Assembly: GCA_963702425.1 (NCBI GenBank)
Contig: CAVPCQ010000012.1
Span: 1-64,000, forward strand
Length of the DNA stretch: 64,000 bases
Origin: an uncultured Acidobacteriota bacterium
GTDB taxonomy: Bacteria > Acidobacteriota > Polarisedimenticolia > J045
Direction of reading: 5' to 3'
The position numbers and the translations under genes were made by a program. The notes beneath the pieces are model-generated. The model saw only the letters and a list, made by a program, of their open reading frames with translations. It did not search any database and was not told the DNA's origin. Every line of letters begins with the position of its first letter. The stretch's first letter is position 1. Shown one piece after another: positions 24,223 through 64,000 of the stretch.

Positions 24223-24244
24223 ACGGGACCGAGATACGGCGTGC

Positions 24245-28119: not shown

Positions 28120-28659
28120 GTTGTGGGCTGATTCTCGCACAGACGGGCGGGCATCGCCACGGTCGCACGCGCTGCCGTGATGGTCTACCCCACCGGAATC
28201 CTCTCCACGCGGCCGACGATCTGCGGTCCGCGGCAGAGAGACCCTGCTTGATGCCGATAGCGGGGCCGGCACGGTGAGTCCTGCCCAGCAGCAATTGCGT
28301 AGCATCCATGCGCGGGGATGAGTCGCGGCATTCACCTTCAGCGTGGTGAGTGAGCCGTGCCGCTCGGAGATCGCCAATTGCGTCGCGGTAGGGCTGACCA
28401 ACAGACACGGCACCAGGCAACGGCGGCTCACTCAGGGCGCCCGGGAGCGGTCTTGATCCGGGCTTGGCAGCACGGTATCCATGTGTCACACTATCTTCCT
28501 ACCGCTGCAGCCGCAGGCTGGCCGACCTAGCGCCCACCCGGTGTCGGAGACGCACATGGCATTCCGCCTCTGCCGAGAACGCGGCGCTGTACGCCTTGGC
28601 CGGAAGCGACGCGCTTCCTGTGTTGCGCCGTACCGTCGGAAACTCGAACCGGCATCAGC

Positions 28660-31849: not shown

Positions 31850-33415
31850 TCACCCACCCAGCCGTCGTCGCAAGCCAGGGAGGACCTCTGGGTGAGCCAG
31901 CGGCGCGGCCAATCCGAACATGAGACAGAGTATGAGCTTCACGAGAAGTAGCGTCGCGTCCATTGACCGTGTTTCGACCGCCTGCACGATCTGGCCCGAT
32001 TTCCACTCCGCCACCGGTGTCGACTTGAGGAACTCGACGACGTGCACCGACACGAGGCGCTCGAGCGATTCGAAACCGGGTAGCGACTGGAGCGATCCGT
32101 GCCCGATCAGCAGGTACATCGTTACGGCGATGAAGACCAACGCGGCGACTCGTCGGTACTCAATGCGCTGTCGGAAGAACTTCTGCGAGCGATGGGTCCC
32201 GAATACCAGCAGGAGCGCAGCCGAGATGCAGCCCGCCAGCGCCACGCCATCCATACCCCACATCCCGACGAACAGCAGGCTGAGCAGCGTCTTGCCACAT
32301 GCGGAGAAGCCTCGTTGCAGTGCGAGAATCTTCGTCGCCTTGGCGTACATCAGCCCGAAGTTCATGTAGGAATAGCAAGCCCCCAGGATCACCGTGACGA
32401 CCTGGATACGGGCGATACGCGCCGACCACCAGAATTCGCTCGGCGTGAACACTCGCAACACGGAATCTACACACACTGCGACCACCAAACCGGCGAAGAG
32501 CAGGAAGAAGATGTAGGTTGTGAACATCCGACCGCTCTGGGCTTTCGCCCCATCCGGATCAGCCTCCGCCAGTTCGAACTGCTTGGTCACCCAGGAACGC
32601 ATGAAGGGCTCAGCGACGAGAAGAGTGATCAAGGTCGGGAACTTCATTCCCATCTGCATCTTGCCGACCCCGCCCAGGCTGATCGAGAAGCGAACGATGA
32701 GGCTCTCGATTTGCCCCGCCACCCACGCCACGACTGCCCCCGGAATCAGGGGCCACTGGTAGCGGAGGAGCTCGCGCGCAACGTCCCTCCGGAAGGCGAA
32801 CCCGCACTCGCGAGCACAAAGCCAACCGAAAGTCAGAGCCGCACAGATCGCGACGACGAAGTTCGTGAGGAAGTACCCGAGCAGGCCGAGTTTCAAGACG
32901 AGCAGCAGCCAGACGTTGAGCCCGATGCTGACCAGTAGCTGCATCAGACCGATCAGGGAATAGGCTACGGACCGGCGCTGGATGAGGAGAATGGATGCGG
33001 CCGTGTTCGCGGTGAGGTCAAACACGAAGGTGCCGAAGCCGAGGCAGATCAGAGGGTAAGACGCCGCGTCCCCGAGGAGGAGTTGGCTCATTGGCTTGCT
33101 GAAGATCATGGCCAGCGTGGCGATCGCCACCGCCGGCACGGCGACGAGGACGATTCCGGTAGGCACGACCGAATTCCGGCGGTCACCGGTCTCGGCATGG
33201 TAGTACCTCATCATCGCGCCACCCACCCCGTTCGCGAGCAGGCTCAGCACGAGTGACAGGCTGGTGTCCACCATCGCGATCTGACCGTAACCCGAATCGC
33301 GAAACAGATGGGCGTAGACTGGGAGCATCAGGAATCCGACGGCCTTGCTGGCGACAACGGCGGAGCCGTACACGCCGGCGTGCTTCAGCGTCGCCCGGGT
33401 GAGTCCGCTCGCCAT
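31850..33415 (-). CDS. Wzx/MOP-family oligosaccharide flippase
   Basis: LKHAGVYGSAVVASKAVGFLMLPVY...YGQI, ELLRYQWPLIP, WGMDGVALA; 12-14 TM segments. Confidence 0.85.
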   Translation of the reverse strand: MASGLTRATLKHAGVYGSAVVASKAVGFLMLPVYAHLFRDSGYGQIAMVDTSLSLVLSLLANGVGGAMMRYYHAETGDRRNSVVPTGIVLVAVPAVAIATLAMIFSKPMSQLLLGDAASYPLICLGFGTFVFDLTANTAASILLIQRRSVAYSLIGLMQLLVSIGLNVWLLLVLKLGLLGYFLTNFVVAICAALTFGWLCARECGFAFRRDVARELLRYQWPLIPGAVVAWVAGQIESLIVRFSISLGGVGKMQMGMKFPTLITLLVAEPFMRSWVTKQFELAEADPDGAKAQSGRMFTTYIFFLLFAGLVVAVCVDSVLRVFTPSEFWWSARIARIQVVTVILGACYSYMNFGLMYAKATKILALQRGFSACGKTLLSLLFVGMWGMDGVALAGCISAALLLVFGTHRSQKFFRQRIEYRRVAALVFIAVTMYLLIGHGSLQSLPGFESLERLVSVHVVEFLKSTPVAEWKSGQIVQAVETRSMDATLLLVKLILCLMFGLAAPLAHPEVLPGLRRRLGG

Positions 33416-33417
33416 GG

Positions 33418-34191
33418 TTACGGAATCGCCTGTTGCCCGTCGAAACGAGAGACTGTCGCGATGTTACCCTCGACGACTACGGCCCCGGCATACCCCGGCG
33501 CCGGGTTCAGGGCGAGCATGGACCAGCCGAGCGCTTCCGATGCGTCCCCGTCCACTCGCAGGATCCGCGCCGGCTCGTACGGCCCCACGCTGACCTCGAA
33601 CTGCTCGAGGGGGAAGGACAGACCTTCACCACGAGCCTTGATGAAAGCCTCCTTGCGCGCCCAGCACCGGAAGAAGGCCTCGATCCATTCGTGGCCGTCG
33701 AATCGGTCCAGCTCGGCAATCTCACCGCGGGCGAAGAACCGGCGGGCAACGCCGTCATCGGCCTGCTGGGCCTCGACGAGCTCGACATCGACTCCGACCT
33801 CGCGGTCCTGCGTGATGGCGATCAGGACCAGGCCCGCCGAGTGCGAGAGGTTGAACCTCAGATCGATCGGCAGCGGGCCGGCGAGTTCCGGCTTGCCGTA
33901 GGACGCCAGCCGATACTGGAGCGCCGCCGCCGGCAGGCCGAGATAGCGTGCCAGCACTTCCCGCAGCACACCCCGTCGCGAAATGAACCTCCGGCGGTCG
34001 GTCTCGAACCGGAAACGTCGCGCCCGCGCACGCTCGTTCTCTGCGAGAGTCCCTTCGAGACGACCCTGGTCGCTCCCGAACCGATCGACGTCGACCCGCC
34101 AGACGTGAAGTTCATCAGGCCGCAATGCGAGTGACGCCGGCGGACCGCACCAGGCATCGATGGTCGTCGGGAATCGAAGGGGCGCCGGCAT
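33418..34191 (-). CDS. sfp: Sfp-type 4'-phosphopantetheinyl transferase
   Basis: YGKP, FNLSHS, VGVDVE and WARKEAFIKARGEG motifs. Confidence 0.93.
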   Translation of the reverse strand: MPAPLRFPTTIDAWCGPPASLALRPDELHVWRVDVDRFGSDQGRLEGTLAENERARARRFRFETDRRRFISRRGVLREVLARYLGLPAAALQYRLASYGKPELAGPLPIDLRFNLSHSAGLVLIAITQDREVGVDVELVEAQQADDGVARRFFARGEIAELDRFDGHEWIEAFFRCWARKEAFIKARGEGLSFPLEQFEVSVGPYEPARILRVDGDASEALGWSMLALNPAPGYAGAVVVEGNIATVSRFDGQQAIP

Positions 34192-34195
34192 GGCG

Positions 34196-34957: not shown

Positions 34958-35876
34958 GGGGACTCCTGCTGGACAGCGCGGGATCGAGCTGTCCCGGAAG
35001 CGCGACGCTCTGCCGCCTCCACGTTCCGAACCAGTCCGCAATCGCGTCCAAAAGCTCCTTCTGGTTCCCGAGCAGTGTGAAGGTGTGGTCCGTACGGTGC
35101 ACGATCTCATTGCGGTAGCCCGGTGCCGAACGAAGACGCGCCATGCAACTTTCCGCGAACACGTCGAAATAGTCCAGGGAGTGGTCCCCATGCGAGTGCA
35201 CGAACAGGAAGCGGACCTGCCGGTCCAGGAGGGCGTGAAGTTCCCGCGACAACTGGTCCGATATCTTCATCACCTGCTGAGGAGGCGCAACACGGTCTTT
35301 GAACTGGTCAACGAGAACTTTGACCAGCCGTTTGTACTGAATATTCCCCTTCAGCGCTCGCATCCATGCGCCGCGGTCCAGCAGTGACTTCCTCCAGTAC
35401 TGCCTCGCCCAGCTTCGGTTCTTCACATAGCGGTTCCACTCGGAATTCCGGTCCAGCCCCTGGCTGTTCAGCATCACAATTCCGACAACCCGCTCGTCGG
35501 CACATGCCGTCTTGAACGATGTGACCGCGCCCGAACACAGCCCGACCAGGATGAAGCGCGTCATCCCGAAGCGTCTTTCGAGATCGTTCATGACTTCCCG
35601 TGCTTCCACAACGGTGCTCTCCGACCACGTCAGGCGGTCTCGACGTATGCCGCTGTCGCCGATTCCGCTATGATCGAACCTGGCCACCACGAACCCGCAT
35701 GAGGCCAGTCGTCGCGCGATCCTGACCGACATCCGACTCGGGCCGACACGGTGGACGACCCCTGCGTTGAACAGAATCACTGCTGGCAAAGCCTCCTCTT
35801 GGTCAGGGCCCGGCTGTTTCGCAATGATCCCAACCAGAGACGGGGCGGTGCCGAACGTCGTTGCGATCTCAAGCAC
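34947..35876 (-). CDS. Alpha/beta hydrolase, exosortase-associated 'hydrolase 1'-like (GLCSG elbow)
   Basis: GTG start with GAGG RBS; NAGVVHRVGPSR, RFDHSGIGDS, GLCSGA, DHTFT. Confidence 0.8.
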   Translation of the reverse strand: MLEIATTFGTAPSLVGIIAKQPGPDQEEALPAVILFNAGVVHRVGPSRMSVRIARRLASCGFVVARFDHSGIGDSGIRRDRLTWSESTVVEAREVMNDLERRFGMTRFILVGLCSGAVTSFKTACADERVVGIVMLNSQGLDRNSEWNRYVKNRSWARQYWRKSLLDRGAWMRALKGNIQYKRLVKVLVDQFKDRVAPPQQVMKISDQLSRELHALLDRQVRFLFVHSHGDHSLDYFDVFAESCMARLRSAPGYRNEIVHRTDHTFTLLGNQKELLDAIADWFGTWRRQSVALPGQLDPALSSRSPHEA

Positions 35877-36720
35877 GATGCACCTCGGAAACCCACTGCG
35901 CGATCCGCTGAATGCTCTGAGTCGGTAGCACCATCTCGTACGGCTCGGCAAACCACATCATCGGTTCATGGATCGGTGCCTCGTCCACCTTGGCGCCGAG
36001 CTGGTCCAGGCGCAAGCGAAGATCTCGAAACTCGCCACTATCGCCGTTGTCCACGAGCAGGATGCTCCGTGCTGGCGATCGGCCGATCTGATCCAGGTCG
36101 AACTGCTCGAGCTGGCGCACGGCCTTGTCGGAGAACAGGAAGCCGAGCACCTCGAGCCCACTCTCACGCCCTGCCAGGCGACGGGACTCCTGCTCCCGCC
36201 ATCCGTGCTTGCGCTCGTGCGACGTCTGCTGGGCGCGGATCTCGTCCAAGTAGCGTCGTCCGTCGACCACGGGCTGCCAGAGAGCCAGGGAATCGAGCGA
36301 CCCCGTCCTTTCGCCGACCTTCACCGCCAGGCTCGCCCCCAGGCGCAGCCCGACGACGCCGACCCGGCGGCAGCGGTTTCCCATGTACTCGATGGCCGCG
36401 TTGAGGTCCTCGGTCCAGCGATCGAGATCACCTTCGTCCTCCTCCCCGAGAGAGTCACCGCTGCCGAAGAAGTCGAATCGGAGCACTGGAAAGCCGGCCA
36501 GGTTGAGCTGCCGGGCCAACTGCCGGCATCCTCTGTGACTTCGGCCGTATTCGTGCCCTGGCGGGTACGCGATGACGATACCGTCCTCGCGCGTGTTGCT
36601 GCCGAAGGGCGATTCATGCAGACCAAAAAGACGATCGTTCGGACCAAAGAAGAAGGGAGTCAGGGCCTCGCGCCTCGAGGCTCCGGCACTCTCGTTCCCT
36701 CCGGGCACCTGGGTTGTCAA
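35869..36720 (-). CDS. Alpha/beta hydrolase, exosortase-associated 'hydrolase 2'-like (GLRLG, no Ser nucleophile)
   Basis: TTG start with GGAGG RBS; PPGHEYGRSHR, LRFDFFGSGDS, GLRLGA, LWQPVVDGRRYL, EVLGF. Confidence 0.8.
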   Translation of the reverse strand: MTTQVPGGNESAGASRREALTPFFFGPNDRLFGLHESPFGSNTREDGIVIAYPPGHEYGRSHRGCRQLARQLNLAGFPVLRFDFFGSGDSLGEEDEGDLDRWTEDLNAAIEYMGNRCRRVGVVGLRLGASLAVKVGERTGSLDSLALWQPVVDGRRYLDEIRAQQTSHERKHGWREQESRRLAGRESGLEVLGFLFSDKAVRQLEQFDLDQIGRSPARSILLVDNGDSGEFRDLRLRLDQLGAKVDEAPIHEPMMWFAEPYEMVLPTQSIQRIAQWVSEVHRA

Positions 36721-36733
36721 CGTGACCTCCTGC

Positions 36734-39700
36734 TCAATTCCGCGGGCGGCCACGGCGGTCGCGGGGCGCGACCAACCGCCCCAGCGCGGACAGCACGCTC
36801 CGCCCGGTCCGGCCTGCCGGCGCCGGTTCCACTTCCGCGACCTTCGCATCGCAGGTGGACGCGATCTGCCCAAGCGTCTGATGGAACAGCGCACGCAGAT
36901 TCACCTTCATTCCCGCCCTGGTCTCGAGGGCCTCCATCACTTTCACCATCACCAGTGAGTTTCCACCGAGTTCCAGGAAGCTGTCGTTGACGCCCACGCG
37001 GTCGATCCCGAGCACCTCGGACCAGATCTCCGCGAGGATAATCTCAGTCGGCGTCTCCGGTGGAACGTAGTCCGTCGGAAGATCGGGGCGCGGGTGACGG
37101 TGCCGCCCAGCCGGAGCCTCGACCATCTCGCTCTCTTCGAGGTCGGGCGACTCGACCGCCGTAGGGAGTCGGTACCGCTGCGGGCGAGCGGACTGAAGGA
37201 GGAGCGAGAGGTCCGTCTCGGAGACCAGGACATTCGGCTCTTCCGCCCCGGCGAGGATCCGACGGAACACTTCGCCACCCTCCCTGTTGGAAATGCCCTG
37301 CGCTTCCGGAAGGGGGACCCCTGCGGCCTCCACAGCCATGCCGACCTCGCGCCAGCGATTCCAGTTCACGGAAACGCAGAAGCGACCGGTGCTCGCCGCG
37401 TGGCTGCGTGCAAAAGCATCGAGGTAGGCGTTCGCCGCGGAGTAGTCCGCCACGCCGGGTACGCCCTTGACCGCGTTGAGGGACGAGCAGAGCACGAAGA
37501 AGTCCAGCTGTTCCTGGCTCAGCAGGCTTTCCAGCACGCGAGTTCCCAGCAGCTTCGGCCCGAAACTGAGCCACGGTCTGTCGGGCGACTGGATCGCCAG
37601 TAGGCCGCCGGCCGTGACACCCGCCGCATGGACCACCCCGTGAATGGAGCCGAAACGGGACCTTGCCTCCCGCAGCACGTTCCGCATTTGAACCGGATCG
37701 GAAACGTCGGCGGCTACCGCCATGACCTGCGCGCCGTTCGCCTCCAGGGTCTGCACGGTCCGAATCCGGCGGCTCACGGGATCCGTCTTGTCGCCGTTGA
37801 GGTGTTGCTCCCACTCCGACCTGTCCGGCAACGGTGTTCGGCCTACGAGGACGAGATTCGCGTGGCACCACTCGGCCAAGCAGTTCGCCAGGACGTACCC
37901 GACGCCGGTCAGACCACCGCTGATGAGATACGTCCCGCGCTCCCGCAGGCGGGGCGTCAAGTCGCCATCCGGTTTGCTCAGGTGTACCGGGGAGAAGGAC
38001 TCCAGCCAACGTCGTCCGCTGCGGTAGGCGACGACAGGGTCGGAGTCGGCGTCGGCCGCGGCGCCGTCGATCTCGCGAATCAGCGCGTCCACTGCCTCCG
38101 GTACCTGCAGCCGCAGGTCCTCTGCCGAGAAGTCAACGTTCCGGCAGGACACCTTGGCGAACTCGTGGCCGATCACTCGAACCGGGCCGAGGATCGTCGC
38201 CTTCTCGGCGCAGATGGACTCTGCGCCCGTCACGTCGTGCACGCCCTCCGTGACCGCGAAGATGCGCAGGCCGCTCGAGGCTTCCGCGTCCGCCAACGCC
38301 CGTACCAGGAAGAACAGGCTGAAGTAGCCAAGATACTGCAACTCCTCGGCGAGTGCGTCATCGTTGCGTATCGCGTCTGAAGCGGGCGTGGTGCCCCACA
38401 GATGAACGGCGAGTCCGGGGAAGCCACCGTCTCGTGCCAGGTCGCCGACGAGGCGATGGTAGTCGTCCTGCGACCGCGGATCGAGAGTGATCCTGTCGCC
38501 CGTTCGCTCGTATCGCGGGCCGGTCGTTACCTCGAACACCCGCCGGCCGTCGGCCTGGAGCCGCTCGAGGCACCGCCGAGCGAAGTCCGAGCCGTCGGCA
38601 AAGACCACGCAGCGGGTTTCGGCGGGACGATCCGACGCAGTCAGGGGCCGCTCTCCGGACAGGCTCGTCCGCCGCCAGGTCCTCGCGTAGTACCAATCGG
38701 CGATGTTCCTTCTCAGGCCCGGGGAACCCTCGCCACGTTCGACCGACTTGTCGAGCCGGTCGATCCAGAAGCGCTGCCGCTGGAACGGGTACGTGGGCAG
38801 GGTCACGCGGCGGCGAGACTCGGCCCGGTAGAAGCCGCACCAGTCAACGCTGACTCCCACCGTCCAGAGACGTGCCAGGGCGCCCATGAGCACCGCCGCA
38901 TCCGAGACCTCCGCCTTCGGATGACGCATCGACGAGATCAGGACCTTGTTCGGATCGCACGCGTCGTGCATGCGCGCTAGTGAGGTCATGATCTGGCCGG
39001 GGCCGACCTCGAGGAGGACCTGGTCCGGCATGCGCAGGATCCGTTCCATCCCCTCGGCGAATCGAACCGGTTCGCGAAGGTGGAGACCCCAGTACTCGGG
39101 GCTCCGGGCCTCCGACTCGGTGATCCAGTCGCCCGTCAGGTTGGACACGAACGGGATTCTCAACGAGCCGAGTTTAGCCTTCCCGACGGCCTCGACGAGC
39201 GGCCCTACGCCGCTCTCCATCAGCCCCGAGTGATACGCGTGGGTGGCGGCCACGCGGCTGCACTCCACACCGTCCCGCGTCAGCCGCTCCTCGAACGCCT
39301 CGATCCGCTTCGGGTCGCCGGAAACGAGGCACAGCGACGGGGCATTGACCGCGGACAGCCAGATCCCCTCCTCCCGTTGCAGCAGTGCGCGAACACGGTC
39401 TTCCGGCAAGGGGATCGATAGCATGGCGCCGTCGGGAGACTTCTCCATCAGACGACCGCGAAGCGCAACGACCCTCAGGGCGTCCTGGTAGCTCAGCACA
39501 CCGGAGACGCACGCGGCCACGTATTCCCCCAGGCTGTGGCCGATGCAGGCAGCGGGCTCGATGCCCCACGACTGCCAGAGTCTCGCCATCGCGTAGTCGA
39601 CGAGGAACACCGCCGGCTGGAAGATCGTGGGGCGGTCCAGCAGGACCGCCGCATCGGCGGGGTCGGCCTCCGCCGGATAGAGGCAACTCCGCAGGTCGAA

Positions 39701-55300: not shown

Positions 55301-58300
55301 TGGGCACCCTGCGGGAGCTTCAACAGATCGAGGACGCCCAGGGTGTAGTTCAGGAGCTGCCGGTGCTCGATCTGCACACCCTTGGGCCGTCCCGTCGAGC
55401 CGGAGGTGTAGATGACGTAGGCCAGATTGTCTGGGTCGACGCCGCTTCCGGGATTGGCCTCGCTCTCCTTATCGATGTCACTGCCGTCTCGGTCCAGGCA
55501 GATGACCTCGGCCGCGTGCTCCGGGAGATTGTCGAGGTGATCGCGCCCGGTGATCAGCACCCTCACTGCGGTGTCTTCCAGCACGAATGCGATCCGGTCG
55601 GCGGGCTCCGTCAGATCAAGGGGCACGTAAGCGCCGCCAGCCTTGAGGACACCAAGGAGCCCCACCACCATGTCCAAGGAGCGCTCCACGAAGATGCCCA
55701 CGAGTACCTCGGGGCCTACCCCGCGTTTCCTCAGGTAGTGGGCGAGCTGGTTGGCCCGCGCGTTGAGCTCCTGGTAGGAGAGCGTCTGGTCTTCGAACGC
55801 CACCGCCGCCGCCGCCGGCGTTCGCTCGACATGCTCCTCGAACAAGCGGTCGACCGTCTTGTCGCGGGGGTACGCCGTCCTCGTTTCGTTCCACTCGACG
55901 ATGGCCCGATCACGGTGGCCCGGGTCGAGGAGCGGAAGCTCGGAAAGCCGCGTTTCCGGGTTGCTGACGGCACCCTCGAGCAGCGTCGTCAGATGCGCCG
56001 CCATACGCTCCACGGTGGAGGCGTCGAACAGGTCAACGTTGTAGGAGAAGACCCCCCTGATTCCGGTGGGATGCTCGTGGAGATACAGTTCCAGGTCGAA
56101 ACGCGCGGTATGGGCCTCCACCGGGTAGTCCCCGATCACGACGCCCGGCAGCTGCAGCTCGATCCGAGGTACGTTCTGCATCGCGAACACCGTCTGGTAG
56201 AGCGGCGTCCGCGCCAGGTCGCGCTCCGGGTTCAACTCGTGAACCAGCCGCTCGAACGGCAGGTCCTGGTGGTCGTAGGCATCCAGCGACAGCTGCTGGA
56301 CCCGTCGCAATACTTCGGAGAACGTCGGGTTGCCTGAGAGGTCCGCACGCAACACCACGCTATTGACAAAGAAGCCGATCAGGTCTTCGATCTCCGATCT
56401 CGTACGGTTCGCGATCGGAGAACCGACGACAATATCCTCCTGGCCCGTGTAGCGCGACAGCAGCGCCTGGTACGCCGCCAGCAGGACCATTGCGACGGTG
56501 ACGCCTTCCTTGCGCGCGAGGCGCGAAACCGCATCGGACAACTCACGTGATAGTGCCAGCCGATGGGACGCGCCACGGAAGGTCTGAACCGGGGGCCGGG
56601 GACGATCGGTGGGCAGGTTCAAGACCGGGAGACCTTTGCCCAGCTTGTCCTTCCAGTACGACAGCTGGCGGTCCGCCAACTCGCCCTGCAGGCGTTCGTT
56701 CTGCCACACCGCGAAGTCTGCGTACTGCACGGTCAGTTCCGGCAGCCGGGGCGGCTCACCGGTCCGTCGCGCGCCGTACAGCGCAGCGAGGTCCCGCGCC
56801 AGCAACCCCATCGACCACCCGTCGCACACGATGTGGTGCATGCTCAACAAGAGCACGTATTCGTCGCTGCCCAGTTCGATCAGCCTCGCCCGAATCAGCG
56901 GGCCGACAGTGAGATCGAAGGCCTTGCCCGCATCCCGATCGATCAAGGCCTGGATCGCAAGGTCACGTTCGGACCGCCTGACGCTGGAAAGGTCGCTGAC
57001 CTCGAGCGTCAAGTCCACATTCTCGTCGATGACCTGGCAGGGCTGCCCATCCCGTACAACGAAGCGGGTGCGCAACGCTTCGTGCCTTCGGGTGAGGTCT
57101 CGCAGGCTTCCCTCGAGCGAATCGCGATCGAGCGTGCCGCTCAGGCGGTAGGCGCGGTGAATGTTGTACGCCCCGGCGGACCCCATCTGGTCGAGCACCC
57201 AGAGACGCTGCTGCCCGGGCGACAGCTCGAGAGTGGCGCCACGCGGCCGCGGGACGAGATCGGGAACCGATGCGCCCTCGCGGCGCAGGCGCTCGATCTC
57301 AGCGGCCAGCTTCGCGACCGTCGGCCGATCGAACAGCGCGCGCAGCGGGAGCTCGACTTTCAGAGCATCGCGTACTCGGGACACCAGCTGGGTAGCCATC
57401 AGCGAGTGACCGCCCAACTGGAAGAAATCGTCGTGGATCCCCGGGTCGTGCACTCCGAGGATTTCGGACCAGATGCCGACCAGGGCCTCCTCCAGCGGGC
57501 CGCGCGGCGCGACGTAGTGATCCCGCATTTCGAGCGGCGCGTACTCGGCCGCCTCGAGGGCCTTGCGATGGACCTTGCCGCTGGGCGTCAGCGGAACCTC
57601 GGACACCACGGAGAACGCCGCGGGAATCATGTATTCGGGAACGCGCTCGGCCAGGAACTGCCGGAGCTCCCCGGCAGTAATGACCCGGCTCGGCTGCGGC
57701 AGAATGTACGCGACCAGGCGGCGATCTCCGGGGCGGTCCTCGCGGATGACCGCAACGGCCTGCCGCACGTCCGGATGTTCGGAGAGCCGCGACTCTACCT
57801 CGCCCAGTTCGACGCGGAAGCCACGCAGCTTGACTTGGTCGTCGATCCGTCCGAGGAACCGGATCTCTCCGTCCGACTCGAAGCTCGTCAGATCACCCGT
57901 GCGGTACATGCGCGCATCTTCGTCGTCGGCGAACGGGTCGCGCACGAACCTCCTGGCCGTCAGGTCATCGTCGTACAGGTAGCCGCGCGCCAGGGCCTTG
58001 CCGCCGATGTAGAGTTCCCCCGGAACTCCCACCGGTACCGGCTGAAGCCGATTGTCGAGGATGTAGAGCCGTACGTTCGAGATCGGCCGTCCGATCCCGG
58101 GGAGGAGGGGCCACTCGCGCGGGTTGCCCGACAATCTCAGCGCCGACACCACGTGGCACTCCGTAGGCCCGTACTGGTTGTCGAGAGTGCTGCCGGGAAT
58201 CCGCTCAAAGAACGCCGCTACGGCAGGCGTGATCTGCAACTGCTCGCCCGCCGTGATCACCTCGGACAGCTGCTCCGGAACGCGACCGGCCTTGATCGCG

Positions 58301-60459
58301 ACCTCGCAGAGGTGCTGGAGTGCGACATACGGCATGAACGCGCGCTCCACGCACTCGGATCGGATCAACTCGAGCAGGGCCTCCGGATCGAGCCGTTCGT
58401 CCTCGGTTGCCAGCACCAGCGTGCCGCCGGAGCCCAGCGTGGCGAACACCTCCTGGCAGGAGACGTCGAAGCTGAACGGCGCGAAGTGAAGCGTCCGGCT
58501 TCCCCGACCGACGGCGGAACGCTGGAACTGCCAGTGCATGAGATTGACCAGCGGGGCGTGCGGCATGGCGACCCCTTTCGGTCGCCCGGTCGAACCCGAT
58601 GTGTACAACAGGTAGGCGAGGTGCTCCGGACGCACGCCTGACGCGGGGCGTTCCGACGAGCACGACGCGATCGCGCCGGCGTCGAGGTCGAGTCGCACCA
58701 CCGTCGGCGTACCGTCGTCCCCCTCCGGGAATTGCAAGCCGCCGCCCGGACCTTCGCGAGTGATGACCACTGCGGCTCTCGCGTTCTGCAGCAGGTACGC
58801 CAGGCGGTCGGCCGGGTAGGCGGGATCGAGCGGAAGGTAGGCGCCGCCGGCCTTCAGGACTGCCAGGATGGCCGTCACCATCTCCGGGGAACGAGCGAGG
58901 CATAGCGCCACCGGTACGTCCGGACCGACACCAAGTCCCCGAAGGTGTGCTGCGAGCCGGTTGGCTTCGACGTCCAGTTGGCGGTAGGTGAGTCGGGCGT
59001 CGCCGGCGATCAGGGCCAGATCGTCGGGATGCTCGTCCACGCAACGTTCGAAGAGCTGGTGAAGGCAGGCGTCGGTCGGATAGTCCTTCTCCGTCCGGTT
59101 CCACTCGACGACGACGCGCCCGCGCTCTTCGCCATCGAGCAGGTTGATGTCGGAGAGCCGCGCGTTGGGATCAGCTGCCATTTGCACGAGGACGCGGCGC
59201 AGGTGTCCGAGCAGACGCCGTACCGTGTCGCCCTCGAACCGCGCGGCGTCGTACGTTACCGCCAACCGCAGTTCGTCCGTGGGGACCACCAACAGCATCA
59301 GCGGATACCCGATGCGCGACGGCATCGGCCTCATCCGCATGGTAAGGCTCGACCCCGCTCGCACGTCGGCACCGGTAACCGGCTGGTTCTCGAACACGTA
59401 CACGCTCTCGAACAGCGGCGTGCCGGGGGCCACCGCGGCCCAGCGCTGCACCTCCCACAACGGGCTGTACTCGTACTGTCTCTGCTCGGCGAGATCACCC
59501 TGTATCGACTTCAACCAGGTCCCGATGGTCGCCTCGGGCGGAAGGGACGCCCGGAACGGCAGCGTGTTGACGAACATCCCGACCATCGTGTCGGCCCCGG
59601 GGATGTCGTCGGGCCTGCACGACACCACCACGCCGAAGACAACATCGTCTTCTCCGCTGTATCGCCCCAACAGGAGCGACCATGCGGCCTGGACGACGAT
59701 ATTCGGCGTCACCCGGCTTTCCGACGCGAGGCGCCTGATGGCCGCGGTCTGCTCGACAGTCAGGTTGAGGTGATCCTCGCGGTAGTCCACGACCGCGGGC
59801 CCGGTCGAGCCGCCACGGTCCGCGGCGAGCACCGTGGGTTGCGTGAATCCGGCCAGCCGTGCGCGCCAGTACGCCTCGGCCCGCGACAGATCCTGGCCTT
59901 GCAACCACTGGATGTAGTCGCGGAACGGGCGCACGGGGACCAGTTCAGGCTCGACGCCGTTGCGAAGCGCGTCGTAGGTTCTCACGACATCGCGCAGCAC
60001 CAGCGGGCCGCTCCAGCCATCCAGCGCGATGTGGTGCAGCGTCCACACCAACTCCCCCGCACTTTCGCCGGTGCGCAGGAACGTCAGGCGGATCAGCGTC
60101 GGCTCGTCCAGCCGGAAACTCCGTTCCCGATCCTGTCGCAGAAACTCCGCGATCCACGACTCCTGCTGGTCCGCCGACATCGACCGGCCGTCGTACTCGG
60201 TCCAGGGCAGGTCGACATGCTTCCGGACCACCTGCACCGGCTCCTTGCGCCCGGTGCCTACCACGGACGTACGCAGCGCGGCGTGTCGGGCCACGATTCG
60301 TTCCCACGCCTGCCGGAACGTGTCGACGTCGACGCCCGAGATCTGGATCCGCGTCTGCTCGACGTACACACCCAGGCCCGGTTCGGCCAGGCTGTGGAAC
60401 ATCATGCCCTTCTGCATCGGGGACAGCGGGTAGATATCCTCGATGTTCCTTGGCGCCAT
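49396..60459 (-). CDS. Hybrid NRPS-PKS: C-A(Pro)-T, C-A(Asn)-T, KS-AT-KR-ACP
   Basis: DCL-type start IEDIYPLSPMQKGM; C HHIALDG; A code DVQFIAQVVK (Pro-like); T GGHS; C HHIVCDG; A code DLTKVGEVGK; T GGHS; KS, AT GHSLG, KR YSAAN, ACP GGSS. Confidence 0.95.
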   Translation of the reverse strand: MAPRNIEDIYPLSPMQKGMMFHSLAEPGLGVYVEQTRIQISGVDVDTFRQAWERIVARHAALRTSVVGTGRKEPVQVVRKHVDLPWTEYDGRSMSADQQESWIAEFLRQDRERSFRLDEPTLIRLTFLRTGESAGELVWTLHHIALDGWSGPLVLRDVVRTYDALRNGVEPELVPVRPFRDYIQWLQGQDLSRAEAYWRARLAGFTQPTVLAADRGGSTGPAVVDYREDHLNLTVEQTAAIRRLASESRVTPNIVVQAAWSLLLGRYSGEDDVVFGVVVSCRPDDIPGADTMVGMFVNTLPFRASLPPEATIGTWLKSIQGDLAEQRQYEYSPLWEVQRWAAVAPGTPLFESVYVFENQPVTGADVRAGSSLTMRMRPMPSRIGYPLMLLVVPTDELRLAVTYDAARFEGDTVRRLLGHLRRVLVQMAADPNARLSDINLLDGEERGRVVVEWNRTEKDYPTDACLHQLFERCVDEHPDDLALIAGDARLTYRQLDVEANRLAAHLRGLGVGPDVPVALCLARSPEMVTAILAVLKAGGAYLPLDPAYPADRLAYLLQNARAAVVITREGPGGGLQFPEGDDGTPTVVRLDLDAGAIASCSSERPASGVRPEHLAYLLYTSGSTGRPKGVAMPHAPLVNLMHWQFQRSAVGRGSRTLHFAPFSFDVSCQEVFATLGSGGTLVLATEDERLDPEALLELIRSECVERAFMPYVALQHLCEVAIKAGRVPEQLSEVITAGEQLQITPAVAAFFERIPGSTLDNQYGPTECHVVSALRLSGNPREWPLLPGIGRPISNVRLYILDNRLQPVPVGVPGELYIGGKALARGYLYDDDLTARRFVRDPFADDEDARMYRTGDLTSFESDGEIRFLGRIDDQVKLRGFRVELGEVESRLSEHPDVRQAVAVIREDRPGDRRLVAYILPQPSRVITAGELRQFLAERVPEYMIPAAFSVVSEVPLTPSGKVHRKALEAAEYAPLEMRDHYVAPRGPLEEALVGIWSEILGVHDPGIHDDFFQLGGHSLMATQLVSRVRDALKVELPLRALFDRPTVAKLAAEIERLRREGASVPDLVPRPRGATLELSPGQQRLWVLDQMGSAGAYNIHRAYRLSGTLDRDSLEGSLRDLTRRHEALRTRFVVRDGQPCQVIDENVDLTLEVSDLSSVRRSERDLAIQALIDRDAGKAFDLTVGPLIRARLIELGSDEYVLLLSMHHIVCDGWSMGLLARDLAALYGARRTGEPPRLPELTVQYADFAVWQNERLQGELADRQLSYWKDKLGKGLPVLNLPTDRPRPPVQTFRGASHRLALSRELSDAVSRLARKEGVTVAMVLLAAYQALLSRYTGQEDIVVGSPIANRTRSEIEDLIGFFVNSVVLRADLSGNPTFSEVLRRVQQLSLDAYDHQDLPFERLVHELNPERDLARTPLYQTVFAMQNVPRIELQLPGVVIGDYPVEAHTARFDLELYLHEHPTGIRGVFSYNVDLFDASTVERMAAHLTTLLEGAVSNPETRLSELPLLDPGHRDRAIVEWNETRTAYPRDKTVDRLFEEHVERTPAAAAVAFEDQTLSYQELNARANQLAHYLRKRGVGPEVLVGIFVERSLDMVVGLLGVLKAGGAYVPLDLTEPADRIAFVLEDTAVRVLITGRDHLDNLPEHAAEVICLDRDGSDIDKESEANPGSGVDPDNLAYVIYTSGSTGRPKGVQIEHRQLLNYTLGVLDLLKLPQGAHFATVSTLAADLGNTPIFGALCSGGCLHVMSEERIRNGGAFAEYMKAKAVDCVKIVPSHLEALLAAAANPADVLPRRMLVVGGEICSWALVERVQHLSRSCAIVNEYGPTETTVGVVSHRVRLSERERFPWGPPVGRPNANTQVYILDPQQQPVPIGIPGELYIGGEGVARGYLSRPEQTAEKFVPDPFRSEPDARLYRTGDLARYRADGNIEFMGRIDHQVKLRGFRIELGEIESVLVEQPDIEQAAAMVCGEGDGRHLVAYVVERARGEATPARLREFLRRRLPEYMVPSAFVILDALPLTPNGKVDRRALPAPVVGRPSEQAYVAPRSEIEEKIAAIWRSVLGVESVGARDNFFDLGGHSLRLLQVHRRLVEELGRDLPVTDLFEYPTVEGLANHLSGKRDTAPGLHTSAKSRLARRGAAHGNAVAVIAMAGRFPGAADVERFWENLRDGVECVRSFTDEELRAAGLPEHLVTHPRFVRTRAVLDDIDLFDARFFGYSPREAELMDPQQRVFLECSWEVLERAGYDPGRYEGMIAVYAGMNTSSYVMNLQSQPELMSSAGGMQSSLSVDKDYLATRVSYDLNLRGPSMTVQTACSTSLVAVHEACRSLLDHGCDIALAGGVCIGVPVVNGVVYEPGGILSADGHNRTFDARADGTVASSGSAVVALKRLEDALADGDQIHAVIRGTAVNNDGSAKVGFTAPSVEGQAAVIALAQASAGVDPESISYVEAHGTATALGDPIEVAALTKVFRERTAKRAFCGLGSLKSNMGHLSEAAGVAGLIKTVLAMEHGQLPPSLHFDNPNPNIDFDDSPFYVVSELRDWTTPSGVPRRAGVSAFGLGGTNAHAILEEAPALDATGPSRPCQLLMLSAKSREALDVAATSLASHLEGHSDLNLADVAYTLQVGRGEFRHRRAVLCRDASEAVQALRGGAAERVWTRHAPERAPSVVFMFPGHGHQHMDMGRELYETEAVFRDVVDEGLEYLRDELDFDLQGFLYPAEADSADPAAVLDRPTIFQPALFLVDYAMAKLWQSWGVEPVACIGHSLGEYVAACVSGVLSYRDALRIVSLRGRLMEKSPDGAMLSIPFDEDHVRALLENEEGIWLSAVNAPSLCLVSGDPTRIAVFEERLTRDGVECSRVAATHAYHSGLMEGGVRPLVDAVGKAALGSLGIPFMSNLTGDWITESEARSPEYWGLHLREPVRFAEGMERILKMPDQILLEIGPGQIMTSLARMHDACDPGRVLISSMRHPKAEVSDAAVVMGAVARLWTAGGRLSWPGFYRDESRRRVTLPTYPFQRQRFWIDRVRKPVERVAGSLGPRRNIADWYYTRFWRRTSLSEGGPSTASDRGAEARCVVFGDGSDFARRCVERLKADGRQVFEVTTGARYERTGDRITLDPRSQADYQRLVGDLARDDGCPGLAVHLWGTTPAPASLRQEDALVDEVQYRGYFSLFFLVRALADAEASNGLRIFAVTEGVHDVTGAESICAEKATVLGAVRVIDHEFTKVSCRNVDFSADDLQRRAPDAVDALIREIDGAAADTDSDAVVAYRNGRRWVESFSPVRLVEPKGDSTARLRERGTYLVTGGLTGVGLVLANCLAEWCHANLVLVGRTPLPDRSEWAEYLRGDGNDESVSRRIRAVQSLEASGAQVMACAADVSDPVEMQKVLKDARTHFGPIHGVVHAAGVTAGGLMAIQSPDRPWFSFGPKLMGARVLERSLSQERLDFFVVCSSLNTVIGVPGVADYSAANAYLDAFARCHAASTGRFCVSVNWSRWREVGMAVEAAGAPLPEGQGISNQEGGEVFRRILRGAEEPNVLVSETDLPLLLRSARSQRYQLPAGSESTDKQERETAEAPSGRHLYPRPELPTDFVPPETQTELALAEIWSAVLGIDGIGVNDNFLELGGSSLVAIKVLSRVRETLKVELQLHKLFLMLTIGELAKHIDGLMWAKEGQSCATVGESESREEGTL
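49590..54450 (-). repeat. Copy 2 of the ~4.9-kb duplicated PKS module segment
   Basis: Matches 36960-41820 from EYMVPS.FV.LDALPLTPNGKVDRRALPAP to the ACP. Confidence 0.9.
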
Positions 60460-60460
60460 G

Positions 60461-63400
60461 CTATTTTCCCTCTCCGGCTTCGCTCAGGATGTCGTCGAGA
60501 TCATCCTGGTCCCACCCGAACTTCCCGAAGTCCGAGGGTGTATACCCTCCCGCTTCCGGAGATTCGCAGTGTTCAATGAGTGAGGTGAGTTCGTCCAAGA
60601 ACGCGCCGGCAAGCTGCTTCACGGTTTCCTCGCGATGCACGGCCCGGCTGAACGCCCACGTCACCGCGAACCGCCCGCCCTGGACGACTGCGTTGATCTC
60701 CAGCAAGTGCGCCCGGCGCATTCGGGGGCTCCGCATCGGACCGCACGGCCAGTCGCTCGGCCGCAGCAGTCCGCCACCGGTGCCGTCGGTGCCGTCGAAC
60801 CGTCCCAGGTAGTTGAAGGCGATCTCCGCCGGCGGGATCCTGCGCAGCAGGTTCGACAGCGCGGCGTCCGGCGCGACCCAGCGGACGAGGCCGTGCGCGC
60901 GTCCGCCGTCCGGCAGGGAATGCAGCCGTTGCTTGGTCTCTTTGAGCGCATCACCAGGCGGTTGCCCCGCCGGGGCCGCGAGCAGCACGGGATAGATCGA
61001 TGTGAACCAACCGACCGTCCTCGACGGATCGAGTCCGTCCGCGAACGGATCGCGCCCGTGTCCCTCGACATCGACGATGTGGCATTCGCTTCCAGTCCAC
61101 CGTCCCAGGGTGCGGGCGAGCGCGGTGAGCAGGACGTCGTTGATGCGGGTGCCATAGGCTGCGGGCACTCTCTGAAGGAGCGCGGTCGTCGAACTCTCCG
61201 AGAGAGACACAGTCGCCGTGCCGACCGACGACACGGTGTTGTCCCCGTCGTCGTGATCCCTGGGGACTCGGCCGACGTCTTGAAGCGGAAGCTCGAGCCA
61301 GTAGGCCGCCTGGTCCAGCAGCTTCGGGGTCGCGGCGTGTTCGGCCAGCGCCTCGGCCCACCGCGTGACCGACGTGCTCTTCGGCGGGAACACCACCGGC
61401 TGGCCTCGCCGGAGCGAGTCCAGCGCGCTCTGAAGGTCCTGCACCAGGATCGGCCACGACACGGCATCCACGGCGAGGTGATGGATCACGAACAGCAGGT
61501 GATCCGCGATGCCTGGTGTCCGGAACAGCGCGAGCCGAAGCAGCGGCCCGTGCTCCAGATCGAGGCTCGCCTGGACCCTCGCCGCCTCGCGCTCCACGAA
61601 TGCACGCCGCGCCCGGGCGTCGAGCGCGGGAACCTCGACCGTCTCGAGCGGCACCTCGACTCCCGGCTCCACGATCTCCTTGATCCAGCCGCCGTGGTCC
61701 CTTCTCAGCCGGGAGCGCAGGGCGTCGTGGTGCTCGATCAGGTGCTGCAAGCCTTCGCGCACAACGTCCGAGTCGAGCACCTCGGTCGACTCGAGAAACA
61801 GCGCCTGGTTGAAGTGGTGAGCGTCCCGCGGATGTTGATTCAGGAACCAGAGCTCGATCGGGGTCAACGGCATGGGCCCCGTGACCGGGCCCTGATCGGC
61901 GTCGTCGTGGAGCAGGAGCTGCGCGGCCGCCGCCAACTCCGCAACGGTCTGGTGCTGGAACAGGTCGCGAGCGCCGAACCGGAGTCCCGCCTCCCGCGCC
62001 GCCGCCACGACCTGGATGCTCAATATGGAGTCGCCGCCGAGTTCGAAGAAGTTGTCGTGGATACCGATCCGTTCGATGCCCAGAACGCGCGCCCAGACGC
62101 TCGAGAGGATCTCCTCTGCCTTGTTCCTCGGCAACGCGAACGCGCCGGCCGACTCCGGCCGCACGGCATCGGGTGCGGGCAACGTCTTCCGGTCGACTTT
62201 GCCGCTCGGTGTCGTTGGGAACCGGTCGAGAACGACGAACGCCGACGGCACCATGAACTCCGGAAGGGTGGCCTGCAGGTGTCGACGGAGTTCCGGGACG
62301 AGCTGACGCACGCGGCGCCCGCGCAACGGATCATTCGTGTAGTTCGCCCAGGGCCGGGTCCGCGGCGTCGCCCGCGGGAACGCCACGGGCCGGGGAGGCC
62401 CGGAGGGACCGCCGTTCCTCCGGACGAACAGCACGTCGTAGGCACCATCGTGCCGGGGCGCTGCCCAGTCGACCAGGACGTCGTAGGGCAAGTGCTGGGA
62501 CATGGAGACGAATCGGTCCGGATCGACGCCGATCCCCGAAGCGGCCTTTCGTGCCTCCTCGATCAACGCACCGGCCGTGGATGGGCACCGGTCGTCGTCG
62601 AGCCGCTCCGCGGCGAAAACGTCGGCGAGGACCCGTGCGTTCGGCACGCCACGGATGCCCAGGACTTCGGGCTCCGATCCGGCCAATTCGTGCTCGAGCG
62701 CCTCCGGGTTCGACCGTCCCGGATCCCAGTCGAGCCAACGAACGGCGGGCGTCTCGACCGCAGGCTCGTCGAGATGAAGCGTCACGTCGTAGCGGAACCG
62801 GCTCAACTCGTTGTCGTAGCCACCGACCTTGGGCCTGATGCTGACCCTGGTGACCCGAGGGAACAACCTCTGGAGGCCGACGAACAGCTCGGGTTCCACG
62901 ACCAGTTCCTGGTCCTGGTTGAGGTGGTGATCGACGCGCTGGCGCAGCTGCACAGCGGAGAGCTCGGGCTCCGCCCGGAAGGCTTGCACGGACGTATGGA
63001 AGGCACGGAACAGCGGCAGGCTGCGCACGTCCCCGATGAAGATCCGCCCCCCGGGGCCAACGGCATCGATCGCTCCTTCCAGGACCCGGAGCAGGTAGTC
63101 CGCGGCGGGGAAGTACTGGACCACGGAGTTCAGGACGATGGTGTCGAACGCGCCCTTCCCGATGCCGGTGAAGTCGTCGGCGCGCTGCCTGCGGAGGGTC
63201 ACCGCCCCTGCCGCTTCCCCCAGCACGCCCAGGTTCCCTTCGATGTAGTCGAGGGCAGCCTGCGCGAAATCACAGCCGAGGTACTGCTCGCAGTGCGGTG
63301 CCACGCGGAAGAGCAGCAGGCCGTTGCCGCAACCGAGCTCCAGGACCCGCTGCGGGTGGTGCGCGAGAATAGCCTCCACGGTGCCGTCAACCCACTTTCG

Positions 63401-64000
63401 CATTTCTTCGGCCGGGATCGGGTCGTTCGTGTAGCTGCTGTTCCATCCGGAGATGTTGAACATGCCGGCGTCGAGCGCCCGCGTTGCGTCATACGACTGC
63501 TCGTAGAGCGTCTCCCAGTGCGAGACGTGGTCGTCCTGCCGCACCTTCTCGCCGAGATCGGAGCCCGATCGTTCCGCAGCTGGAGCCTCGGTAATGTAGG
63601 CGACCAGGCGACGATCGCCCGGGGCGTCCTCTCGGGCCAGTACGACGCTCTCACGCACCGACGGATGTCGGTCGATGGCGGCCTCGATCTCGCCCAATTC
63701 GATGCGATAGCCGCGCACTTTGACCTGGTGGTCGATGCGGCCCAGGAACTCGATGTTGCCGTCCGCACGGAAACGCGCCAGGTCCTGCGTGCGGTACAGC
63801 CGGGCGTCCGGCTCCTCGCAGAACGGGTCGGGCACGAATCGTTCGGCAGTCAGTTCCGCACGGTTGCGGTAGCCGCGGGCGACCCCGACTCCGCCGATAC
63901 ACAGCTCTCCCGGTACTCCGGCCGGCACGGGCTCGAGGTGCCTATCAAGGATGTACACCCGCGTGTTGGCGATCGGCCGGCCGATGTGGACCGGCTCCCC
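60461..64000 (-). CDS. NRPS, 5' part outside the window: ...A interrupted by N-methyltransferase, T, E, COM
   Basis: A7/A8 YRTQDL and GRIDHQVKVRGYRIELGEIE; nMT VLELGCGNG and IVLNSVVQYFP; A10 SGKVDR; T GGDSI; E HHLAVDAVS/EGHGRD/FNYLG; C-terminal TPSDF COM helix. Confidence 0.93.
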   Translation of the reverse strand, partial: GEPVHIGRPIANTRVYILDRHLEPVPAGVPGELCIGGVGVARGYRNRAELTAERFVPDPFCEEPDARLYRTQDLARFRADGNIEFLGRIDHQVKVRGYRIELGEIEAAIDRHPSVRESVVLAREDAPGDRRLVAYITEAPAAERSGSDLGEKVRQDDHVSHWETLYEQSYDATRALDAGMFNISGWNSSYTNDPIPAEEMRKWVDGTVEAILAHHPQRVLELGCGNGLLLFRVAPHCEQYLGCDFAQAALDYIEGNLGVLGEAAGAVTLRRQRADDFTGIGKGAFDTIVLNSVVQYFPAADYLLRVLEGAIDAVGPGGRIFIGDVRSLPLFRAFHTSVQAFRAEPELSAVQLRQRVDHHLNQDQELVVEPELFVGLQRLFPRVTRVSIRPKVGGYDNELSRFRYDVTLHLDEPAVETPAVRWLDWDPGRSNPEALEHELAGSEPEVLGIRGVPNARVLADVFAAERLDDDRCPSTAGALIEEARKAASGIGVDPDRFVSMSQHLPYDVLVDWAAPRHDGAYDVLFVRRNGGPSGPPRPVAFPRATPRTRPWANYTNDPLRGRRVRQLVPELRRHLQATLPEFMVPSAFVVLDRFPTTPSGKVDRKTLPAPDAVRPESAGAFALPRNKAEEILSSVWARVLGIERIGIHDNFFELGGDSILSIQVVAAAREAGLRFGARDLFQHQTVAELAAAAQLLLHDDADQGPVTGPMPLTPIELWFLNQHPRDAHHFNQALFLESTEVLDSDVVREGLQHLIEHHDALRSRLRRDHGGWIKEIVEPGVEVPLETVEVPALDARARRAFVEREAARVQASLDLEHGPLLRLALFRTPGIADHLLFVIHHLAVDAVSWPILVQDLQSALDSLRRGQPVVFPPKSTSVTRWAEALAEHAATPKLLDQAAYWLELPLQDVGRVPRDHDDGDNTVSSVGTATVSLSESSTTALLQRVPAAYGTRINDVLLTALARTLGRWTGSECHIVDVEGHGRDPFADGLDPSRTVGWFTSIYPVLLAAPAGQPPGDALKETKQRLHSLPDGGRAHGLVRWVAPDAALSNLLRRIPPAEIAFNYLGRFDGTDGTGGGLLRPSDWPCGPMRSPRMRRAHLLEINAVVQGGRFAVTWAFSRAVHREETVKQLAGAFLDELTSLIEHCESPEAGGYTPSDFGKFGWDQDDLDDILSEAGEGK

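Follow-up and report, generated by a model that had tools for sequence, protein, structure and literature searches.

A Cys/Arg hydrolase pair as candidate off-loader of an NRPS-PKS assembly line without a thioesterase domain in an acidobacterial polysaccharide locus

We analysed the first 64 kb (hereafter the window) of the 240.7-kb contig C12 from the genome of an uncultured Acidobacteriota bacterium (5.1 Mb, about 71% GC, 42 contigs; 91% complete, 5.85% contaminated). On the minus strand, an operon of nonribosomal peptide synthetase (NRPS) and polyketide synthase (PKS) genes runs into two alpha/beta-hydrolase genes, Hyd1 and Hyd2, followed by a type II thioesterase (TEII), a phosphopantetheinyl transferase (PPTase) and a MOP-superfamily flippase. 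Chain release determines the product of an assembly line, and the last synthetase here carries no release domain; we suggest that the hydrolase pair supplies this function and, more tentatively, that it hands the chain to a polysaccharide precursor. The operon comprises the following features, assigned with Pfam unless noted.

Contig positions 74143-77418, minus strand: g0, NRPS, 1091 aa, C-A-PCP; beyond the window
60461..74146, minus strand: g1, NRPS, 4561 aa; the window holds the 3' part, 60461..64000
49396..60459, minus strand: g2, NRPS-PKS, 3687 aa, C-A-PCP-C-A-PCP-KS-AT-KR-ACP
36734..49399, minus strand: g3, NRPS-PKS, 4221 aa, the last synthetase
36737..36856, minus strand: 40-residue basic, partly amphipathic tail after the last ACP of g3 (read from the sequence)
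35869..36720, minus strand: Hyd1, alpha/beta-hydrolase fold with Arg126 at the nucleophile elbow (GLRLG); best NCBIfam match TIGR03101
34947..35876, minus strand: Hyd2, alpha/beta-hydrolase fold with Cys114 (GLCSG), Asp263 and His264; best NCBIfam match TIGR03100
34196..34957, minus strand: TEII with intact GHSMG motif (PF00975, 165 bits)
33418..34191, minus strand: Sfp/HetI-type PPTase (PF01648; NF042922 HetI, 188 bits, below the cut-off)
31850..33415, minus strand: MOP-superfamily (Wzx-type) flippase, the operon's last gene (PF01943, 33-35.5 bits against a cut-off of 28.2)

The synthetase operon and its missing release domain

The assembly line begins beyond the window, at contig position 77418. 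g0 and g1 share an ATGA overlap, as do g2 and g3, and g1 and g2 are spaced by 1 nt. The 13-nt gap between g3 and Hyd1 contains AGGAGG ahead of the TTG start at 36720; Hyd1 and Hyd2 then overlap by 8 nt and Hyd2 and TEII by 11 nt, with gaps of 4 nt between TEII and PPTase and 2 nt between PPTase and flippase. Open reading frame (ORF) coordinates and sequence bear out, at every junction listed, the statement of an earlier first-pass annotation that all of these genes overlap or lie at most 13 bp apart. Scans for sigma-70 promoters and intrinsic terminators after the flippase and before g0 found none, a result that is uninformative at 65-70% GC.

Domain maps, made with Pfam on whole proteins and on 500-aa tiles, gave eight NRPS and two PKS modules in g0-g3. 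The line has complete C-A-PCP and KS-AT-KR-ACP modules, docking domains and coupled genes, as expected of a hybrid NRPS/type I PKS. g1 reads dock-C-A(MT)-PCP-C-A-PCP-C-A(MT)-PCP-E, of which the A(MT)-PCP-E end lies in the window, and g3 reads TubC-type dock-C-A-PCP-E-C-A-PCP-KS-AT-KR-ACP. What looks like a second condensation domain in g3 is in fact an epimerisation domain; it matches the E domains of GrsA, TycA and TycB at E<=1e-75. g0 opens with a C domain and has no loading module ahead of it; the best solved relatives of this domain are elongation-type C domains (Txo1/2, TycC, PvdL; E 1e-62 to 1e-49), as against 6e-20 and 5e-27 for the starter C domains of CDA and surfactin (similarity to solved structures). 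A tblastn search with the window's own domains showed no other multimodular synthetase in the genome.

We read putative substrates from the signature residues of the eight A domains by means of anchor positions and a substrate code table. The order, which we take to be Thr, N-Me-Val/Ile, Gly and an N-methylated D-residue (aromatic-like, unclear) for residues 1-4, would presumably continue with Pro, Asn (ketide-extended and reduced), D-Asp and Val/Ile (ketide-extended and reduced) for residues 5-8. On this reading, extension of Asn would give a gamma-amino-beta-hydroxy acid, and extension of Val/Ile a second statine-type unit. This order agrees with the first-pass expectation of statine-type and D-Asp residues, and we treat it as a lead only.

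The last carrier domain of g3 occupies residues 4122-4181. The 40 residues after it match no Pfam family at E<=1e-6 (last 500-aa tile), so g3 lacks a thioesterase (TE), NAD-reductase or terminal C domain, in accord with the earlier description of a synthetase that ends at an ACP and a short tail. A TE-bearing module upstream in the cluster, which the first-pass annotation had named as counter-evidence to its reading, was looked for, and Pfam found no TE in g0 or g1 upstream of the window. Genome-wide, PF00975 matches the operon's TEII, an A-PCP-TE protein without a C domain on contig C17, and, weakly (27.5 bits), a sequence on contig C24. The basic amphipathic tail of g3 may be a membrane-targeting or docking element, and we do not use it as evidence. 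Comparable tails occur on 16 of 52 terminal carrier proteins versus 53 of 349 control C-termini, about a twofold difference, which weakens the idea that a post-ACP tail is a universal docking or membrane-targeting helix.

The stand-alone A-PCP-TE protein on C17 (about 130742-133075; a 951-aa open frame without a C domain) has another flippase (C17:124238-125035) and GT2/GT4 genes within a few kb. It may be a second, simpler tie between carrier-protein chemistry and a polysaccharide locus.

The hydrolase pair and its homologues

Hyd1 is most similar to TIGR03101 (hydrolase 2, exosortase A system-associated; 89.5 bits, E 2.6e-25, spanning profile positions 4-250 of 266), and Hyd2 to TIGR03100 (hydrolase 1; 97.3 bits, E 9.1e-28, positions 11-272 of 274). 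Because both matches fall far below the curated cut-offs (202.75 and 168.45 bits, respectively), neither protein is a member of these families by score. To our knowledge, both families are hypothetical equivalogs with no tested function. The thioesterase profile PF00975 matches neither Hyd1 nor Hyd2; just PF12146 and PF00561 do.

The GLRLG motif of Hyd1 and the GLCSG motif of Hyd2, by which the first-pass annotation had named these hydrolases, are present in the sequence. Hyd2 has 599 homologues at E<=1e-5, and in 29 aligned sequences Cys114 (within G-x-C-S-G) and His264 are invariant, with Asp263 retained in at least 90%. Arg occupies the elbow in Hyd1 itself and in 71/71 properly extracted homologues (72 extractions, one left out as faulty); a conserved C-terminal His is lacking in Hyd1. 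Neither sequence has a signal peptide. The distribution of these residues suggests that Hyd2 is probably the catalytic subunit and Hyd1 probably a non-catalytic partner.

The same residues recur in the canonical genes. Canonical hydrolase 1 genes (320-384 bits) have the same Cys in four of four cases and a D-H-T motif in all three whose alignment reached that site, and the neighbouring hydrolase 2 has the same Arg in the three cases where that neighbour was found. Four genomes carry an NRPS-linked pair together with a canonical hydrolase 1 elsewhere, so that the NRPS-linked and canonical pairs form separate clades. Judged from its residues, the Cys/Arg two-gene unit forms a single superfamily that comprises two or more clades. 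Elsewhere in the present genome, a short stretch of a 738-aa frame on contig C37 (about 213298-213540) weakly resembles both of the exosortase-type hydrolase models (E 4e-10 and 7.5e-9).

Structure prediction gave alpha/beta hydrolases for both proteins, with predicted local distance difference test (pLDDT) values of 90 for Hyd1 and 84 for Hyd2. The predicted Hyd1+Hyd2 complex scored 0.90 in three runs, compared with 0.00 for the best of three controls. Of 157 solved complexes, 116 attain this score, as do 2 of 215 mismatched pairs; these counts hold only roughly because in-house alignments were used. The runs share at least 90% of contacts, partner pLDDT is at least 80, and the predicted interface takes in conserved GDS loops from both chains as well as the Asp263-His264 loop of Hyd2.

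A pattern scan, with one genome per species, returned at least 554 relatives among the 601 matches listed, and we examined the best 80. These loci include Phycisphaerae and other Planctomycetota, Acidobacteriota, Gemmatimonadota, Anaerolineae, Rokubacteria, Accumulibacter, Aliiglaciecola and Myxococcota. When the window's proteins were compared with the 80 loci by tblastn for Hyd1 and assembly-line domains, a separate Hyd1 gene was found directly upstream of Hyd2 in 76; a Hyd1 match was absent in L015, L021 and L056 (one of them at a contig edge), and L070 gave a cross-hit only. NRPS/PKS domains are present in 71/80 loci. In 56 of 72 loci the distance from the end of a carrier domain to Hyd1 downstream of it is at most 900 nt, and in five of these 56 (L016, L057, L065, L069, L085) carrier protein and Hyd1 share one reading frame, located around 9-10 kb in the full-length loci; this natural fusion links Hyd1 to the carrier.

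TEII accompanies the pair in just 11/80 loci and so cannot be the general release enzyme. A metagenome contig with 83% identity (2.6 kb, ending in PPTase) keeps the order Hyd1-Hyd2-TEII-PPTase. Given this conserved order, the proximity of carrier and Hyd1, the five fusions and the scarcity of TEII, the pair rather than TEII is likely the release catalyst, and we consider it very likely that Hyd1/Hyd2 takes the finished chain off the last ACP. Two cultured Aliiglaciecola strains, A. lipolytica E3 (L066) and A. litoralis JCM 15896 (L052), combine NRPS-PKS genes, the pair, TEII, PPTase and GT4, with a phosphoglycosyl transferase too in L052; no flippase was seen in the flanks examined. With such cultured carriers, the question can go to the bench.

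Some homologous loci have further recurrent neighbours. In a Gemmatimonas metagenome-assembled genome, a second minimal cassette (A-PCP with an Arg-type and a Cys-type hydrolase; L063:14073-19109) lies 4 kb after the NRPS-PKS-linked pair and adjoins an XrtA-like exosortase. Asparagine-synthase homologues recur downstream of the pair (L009, L034 with three in a row, L051, L057), as do alpha/beta hydrolases of the BD-FAE type in the Anaerolineae loci L065, L069, L080 and L085.

The polysaccharide locus and the fate of the chain

The operon lies in a low-GC island of about 75 kb (contig about 19-93 kb), with a GC fraction of 0.62-0.68 versus 0.70-0.76 outside (GC profile). Pfam and NCBIfam place within it a full Wzx/Wzy polysaccharide locus that flanks the synthetases on both sides: phosphoglycosyl transferase, five GT4, Wzx, Wzy_C, Wzz and Poly_export lie in one locus, and the PF02397, PF04932, PF02706 and PF02563 genes all share the island with the flippase. 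Two CE4 deacetylases and a sulfotransferase are also encoded (Pfam). Upstream of the NRPS genes and on the same strand are a phosphoglycosyl transferase fused to a nucleotidyl transferase and two GT4 genes, so that a single strand is common to these three genes, the NRPS genes and Wzx. The island also contains more GT4 genes, Wzy, Wzz, a CE4 deacetylase and a GHL15-like protein. The downstream side, within the window, holds the following.

30485..31738, plus strand: sulfotransferase (PF13469, PF00685), without signal peptide
28660..29751, plus strand: second CE4 polysaccharide deacetylase (PF01522), without signal peptide
26959..28431, minus strand: GT4 glycosyltransferase (Pfam)
21768..22706, minus strand: Wza-type outer-membrane polysaccharide export protein (PF02563 and SLBB domains)
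19392..21071, minus strand: GH39-like glycoside hydrolase (PF01229) at the edge of the low-GC island (GC profile)

The genome encodes six PF01943 flippases, and the sole one on C12 is the last gene of the NRPS operon. Its score above the PF01943 cut-off, together with an initiating transferase, Wzy, a chain-length regulator and Wza in the locus, points to a Wzx-type (PST) flippase. Pfam finds no ABC or MFS exporter in 31850-64000, as the first-pass annotation had noted for that part, and no exporter of a common type among the genes of the whole island. The N-termini of both CE4 deacetylases and the sulfotransferase are Arg-rich and lack a hydrophobic signal sequence; all three enzymes should therefore act in the cytoplasm. 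The NodB model matches one of the deacetylases weakly (E 9e-9).

Glycan genes also recur next to the pair in other genomes. We annotated 349 ORFs in the downstream flanks (4-10 kb) of the 61 loci with at least 4 kb past Hyd2. GT4, GT2 or flippase Pfam families occur in 20/61 flanks, compared with 6.9% of random 10-kb windows of the present genome, island excluded. A broader hand count, which adds phosphoglycosyl transferases, Wza, CE4 and PIG-L deacetylases, lyases, pyruvyl transferase, an exosortase, sugar epimerases and a few weak calls, finds glycan genes in 33 of the 61. A flippase follows the pair in eight loci, directly so in L022, L057 and L075, and a phosphoglycosyl transferase follows it in four. 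In the closest relatives, Phycisphaeraceae loci L010 and L012, the same fused transferase is present, accompanied in L010 by Wza.

We suggest a two-step explanation, to which we give a probability of about 45%: the pair off-loads the chain and passes it to a lipid-linked glycan. The four co-translated synthetases g0-g3 would build a linear chain from eight amino acids and two malonate-derived units, finished as a beta-hydroxyacyl thioester on the last ACP, with PPTase priming the carriers and TEII clearing mis-primed carriers only. A Hyd1/Hyd2 heterodimer would remove the chain, Cys114 of Hyd2, with His264 and Asp263, attacking the thioester to form an acyl-S-enzyme; the Arg of Hyd1 would complete the site, where it probably binds an anionic group on either the carrier arm or the acceptor. 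The acyl group would then go, rather than to water, to a sugar of an undecaprenyl-phosphate-linked repeat unit that the co-oriented phosphoglycosyl transferase and GT4 enzymes would assemble at the cytoplasmic face. One of the two cytoplasmic CE4 deacetylases could plausibly provide the acceptor by freeing an amine, following the logic of NodB and NodA. The operon's Wzx would finally flip the decorated unit, Wzy/Wzz would polymerise it and Wza would export the polymer; the resulting exopolysaccharide would carry, as a decoration or a cap, an octapeptide with two statine-type residues.

Transfer to a lipid-linked glycan, although the best reading of the second step, is the tentative part of this explanation, as it is drawn from gene context only. 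It fits the co-orientation of transferase, GT4 genes, synthetases, pair and Wzx, the single flippase, the cytoplasmic deacetylases, the exporter-free island and the residence of the canonical relatives in exosortase polysaccharide loci. Trans-acylation onto a lipid-linked glycan followed by flipping had already been proposed in the first-pass annotation; the context it invoked has become richer, with a Wzx/Wzy locus, a single flippase and glycan genes near the homologues, whereas the acceptor it named is still read from that context, and some homologous loci point elsewhere.

Several observations weigh against this explanation. The downstream flank has no glycan gene in 28/61 loci (the upstream side, occupied by synthetases, lies outside this count), some calls in the broader count are weak (L009, L019, L039, L084), and the roughly fivefold enrichment of glycan genes next to the pair is relative to a background from one genome, in loci that are not independent. 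Classical ABC exporters are present in L036 and L081, and an MFS exporter in L064. The closest kin relative of the flippase (34% identity, in a genome of the same taxonomic family) belongs to an NRPS-free exopolysaccharide cluster, ordered transferase-Wza-Wzx-GT4-GT4 and without a hydrolase pair, so the flippase may serve the sugar unit alone, and its position in the operon could be an accident of the site where a cassette was inserted. Fold searches with the Hyd1 and Hyd2 models return generic esterases and lipases (template modelling scores of 0.55-0.69) and also PETase-like folds; no acyltransferase or thioesterase family came closer in these searches or in a profile search of solved structures, so the folds do not point to any acceptor site. 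A search of this genome for an exosortase gave no TIGR02602 match at E<=1e-3 (at 91% completeness, absence is not proven). The amphipathic tail is enriched merely about twofold, an octapeptide per repeat unit would be an unusually bulky cargo for Wzx/Wzy, and the literature searched gave no biochemical or chemical datum for any member of the pair.

A serious rival is that the pair is a two-subunit thioesterase/cyclase that frees a linear or cyclic peptide. The peptide would exit by another route, and the glycan genes and Wzx would make an unrelated or co-regulated polymer, for example a matrix alongside a surfactant. The esterase and lipase folds are the nearest structural relatives and suit such an enzyme, as do the 28 loci without a downstream glycan gene, the classical ABC exporters in two homologous loci and the MFS exporter in one, ABC-2 transporters after the pair in four, and the ordinary exopolysaccharide cluster served by the flippase's kin. 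We nevertheless consider free release rather unlikely, given a 75-kb island without any common-type exporter, the enrichment of glycan genes beside the pair and canonical relatives that are, going by NCBIfam family name, confined to exosortase polysaccharide loci; plain hydrolysis, moreover, needs no Cys nucleophile with a conserved Arg partner. Transfer by the pair to something other than a glycan, whether a membrane or a cytoplasmic acceptor (a lipid, a protein, or a small amine such as a polyamine), is improbable. Cys acyl-enzyme chemistry fits any nucleophile, the basic amphipathic tail on about one third of terminal carriers could put the end of the line at the membrane, and the invariant Arg suggests an anionic ligand, possibly a phospholipid head group; among the 349 downstream ORFs, however, glycan genes recur and lipid-synthesis or polyamine genes do not.

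We regard it as highly improbable that the product is released by TEII, which is intact and in the operon, and that the hydrolases serve instead as esterases or remodelling enzymes of the polysaccharide. In the literature searched, TIGR03100 turned up only in PMC3584217, as a table entry and in a guess that gives a lone TIGR03100-like gene of a Burkholderia exopolysaccharide cluster a part in polysaccharide quality control, which would agree with a role of this kind. Neither hydrolase has a signal peptide, though the polymer would have to be reached, and it is the pair, not TEII, that follows release-less carriers in 56/72 loci, five times as a fusion, with TEII beside it in only 11 of 80. Finally, the island might be a decaying horizontal acquisition with an inactive line, as its low GC, the transposase genes at contig about 103.9-106.3 kb and the failure to find Hyd2 in the relatives searched (below) could suggest. 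Decay is extremely improbable in view of unbroken frames of 4561, 3687 and 4221 codons with coupled junctions, catalytic motifs that are intact wherever inspected, and the gene order kept in the 83%-identical contig.

Horizontal acquisition as such is a different matter. A search for Hyd2 in 40 relatives (four congeners, 18 from the same family and 18 from the same class) gave no match at E<=1e-10, and the four congeners also lack the fused transferase and have flippase matches of only 24% identity; on these grounds the island was probably acquired as a whole.

Comparison with known systems and further features of the contig

The exosortase A hydrolase 2/1 pair (TIGR03101/TIGR03100) is a close parallel. 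It likewise consists of two adjacent alpha/beta-fold genes with the hydrolase-2-like gene first, places Cys and His in one protein and Arg at the nucleophile elbow of the other, and lies beside a carrier protein and polysaccharide genes. The two systems differ in clade, in scores against the family models and in the absence here of a detected exosortase, and an assembly line of 8+2 modules takes the place of a single acyl-CoA ligase with its ACP. The broad form of our proposal, a widespread Cys/Arg transacylase that grafts NRPS/PKS products onto lipid-linked sugars and would also explain the exosortase A hydrolase 1/2 genes, is in our estimate possible but somewhat less likely than not.

Nod factors are made with the NodB deacetylase, the NodA acyltransferase, the acyl carrier system NodF/NodE, the NodH sulfotransferase and the NodIJ ABC-2 exporter. 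By analogy, the logic proposed here would be the same: a cytoplasmic CE4 enzyme frees an amine on an oligosaccharide, and a carrier-bound acyl group is moved onto it. A sulfotransferase is likewise part of the locus, and ABC-2 transporters follow the pair in the four homologous loci noted above. In contrast, the fold of NodA is not that of an alpha/beta hydrolase, the donor there is a fatty acid and here a peptide-polyketide, and the acceptor here would be lipid-linked and polymerised via Wzx/Wzy.

Other systems share single elements. In Dlt D-alanylation, an adenylating enzyme and a carrier protein supply the acyl group for teichoic acids, so that a carrier-supplied acyl ends on a cell-envelope glycopolymer; Dlt differs in moving a single amino acid by a membrane MBOAT transfer, with the chemistry outside the cell, and no such genes are present here. 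PHA synthase has an alpha/beta-hydrolase fold and a Cys-His(-Asp) site, and transfers acyl groups from a thioester to a nucleophile other than water. The NRPS thioesterase domain of SulM, which reportedly has a Cys nucleophile, shares this fold, site and chemistry. Both are single domains or homodimers of other families, unlike the Cys/Arg two-gene pair with its PF12146 and PF00561 rather than PF00975 matches. Mycobacterial glycopeptidolipids combine an NRPS lipopeptide with sugars in the cell envelope; their release is by a reductase domain and their sugars are added singly, with no Wzx/Wzy polymer and no hydrolase pair.

The literature searched contained no description of the pair as an NRPS off-loader, nor of an NRPS within a Wzx/Wzy locus. 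If a release module spanning Planctomycetota, Acidobacteriota, Gemmatimonadota, Chloroflexota, Pseudomonadota and others is missing from that literature, this would mark a gap in the annotation and mining of biosynthetic clusters. If the acceptor is a glycan, the product would represent a new class of peptide-polysaccharide conjugate, and the exosortase-A-associated hydrolase pair would gain its first testable function.

Further features lie in and around the island. A PqqD-like small protein (plus strand) and a PF14907 "uncharacterised nucleotidyltransferase" (minus strand), with two unassigned ORFs between and beside them, occupy window positions 23591-26372 inside it. A 1291-aa FG-GAP repeat protein borders the island, and about 10 kb past it are DDE_5 and DUF772 transposase genes (C12, about 103920-106350). 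In the high-GC flank outside the island, positions 7098-10400 of the window (minus strand) encode an 1100-aa protein that combines a class I/II aminotransferase with C-terminal TPR repeats.

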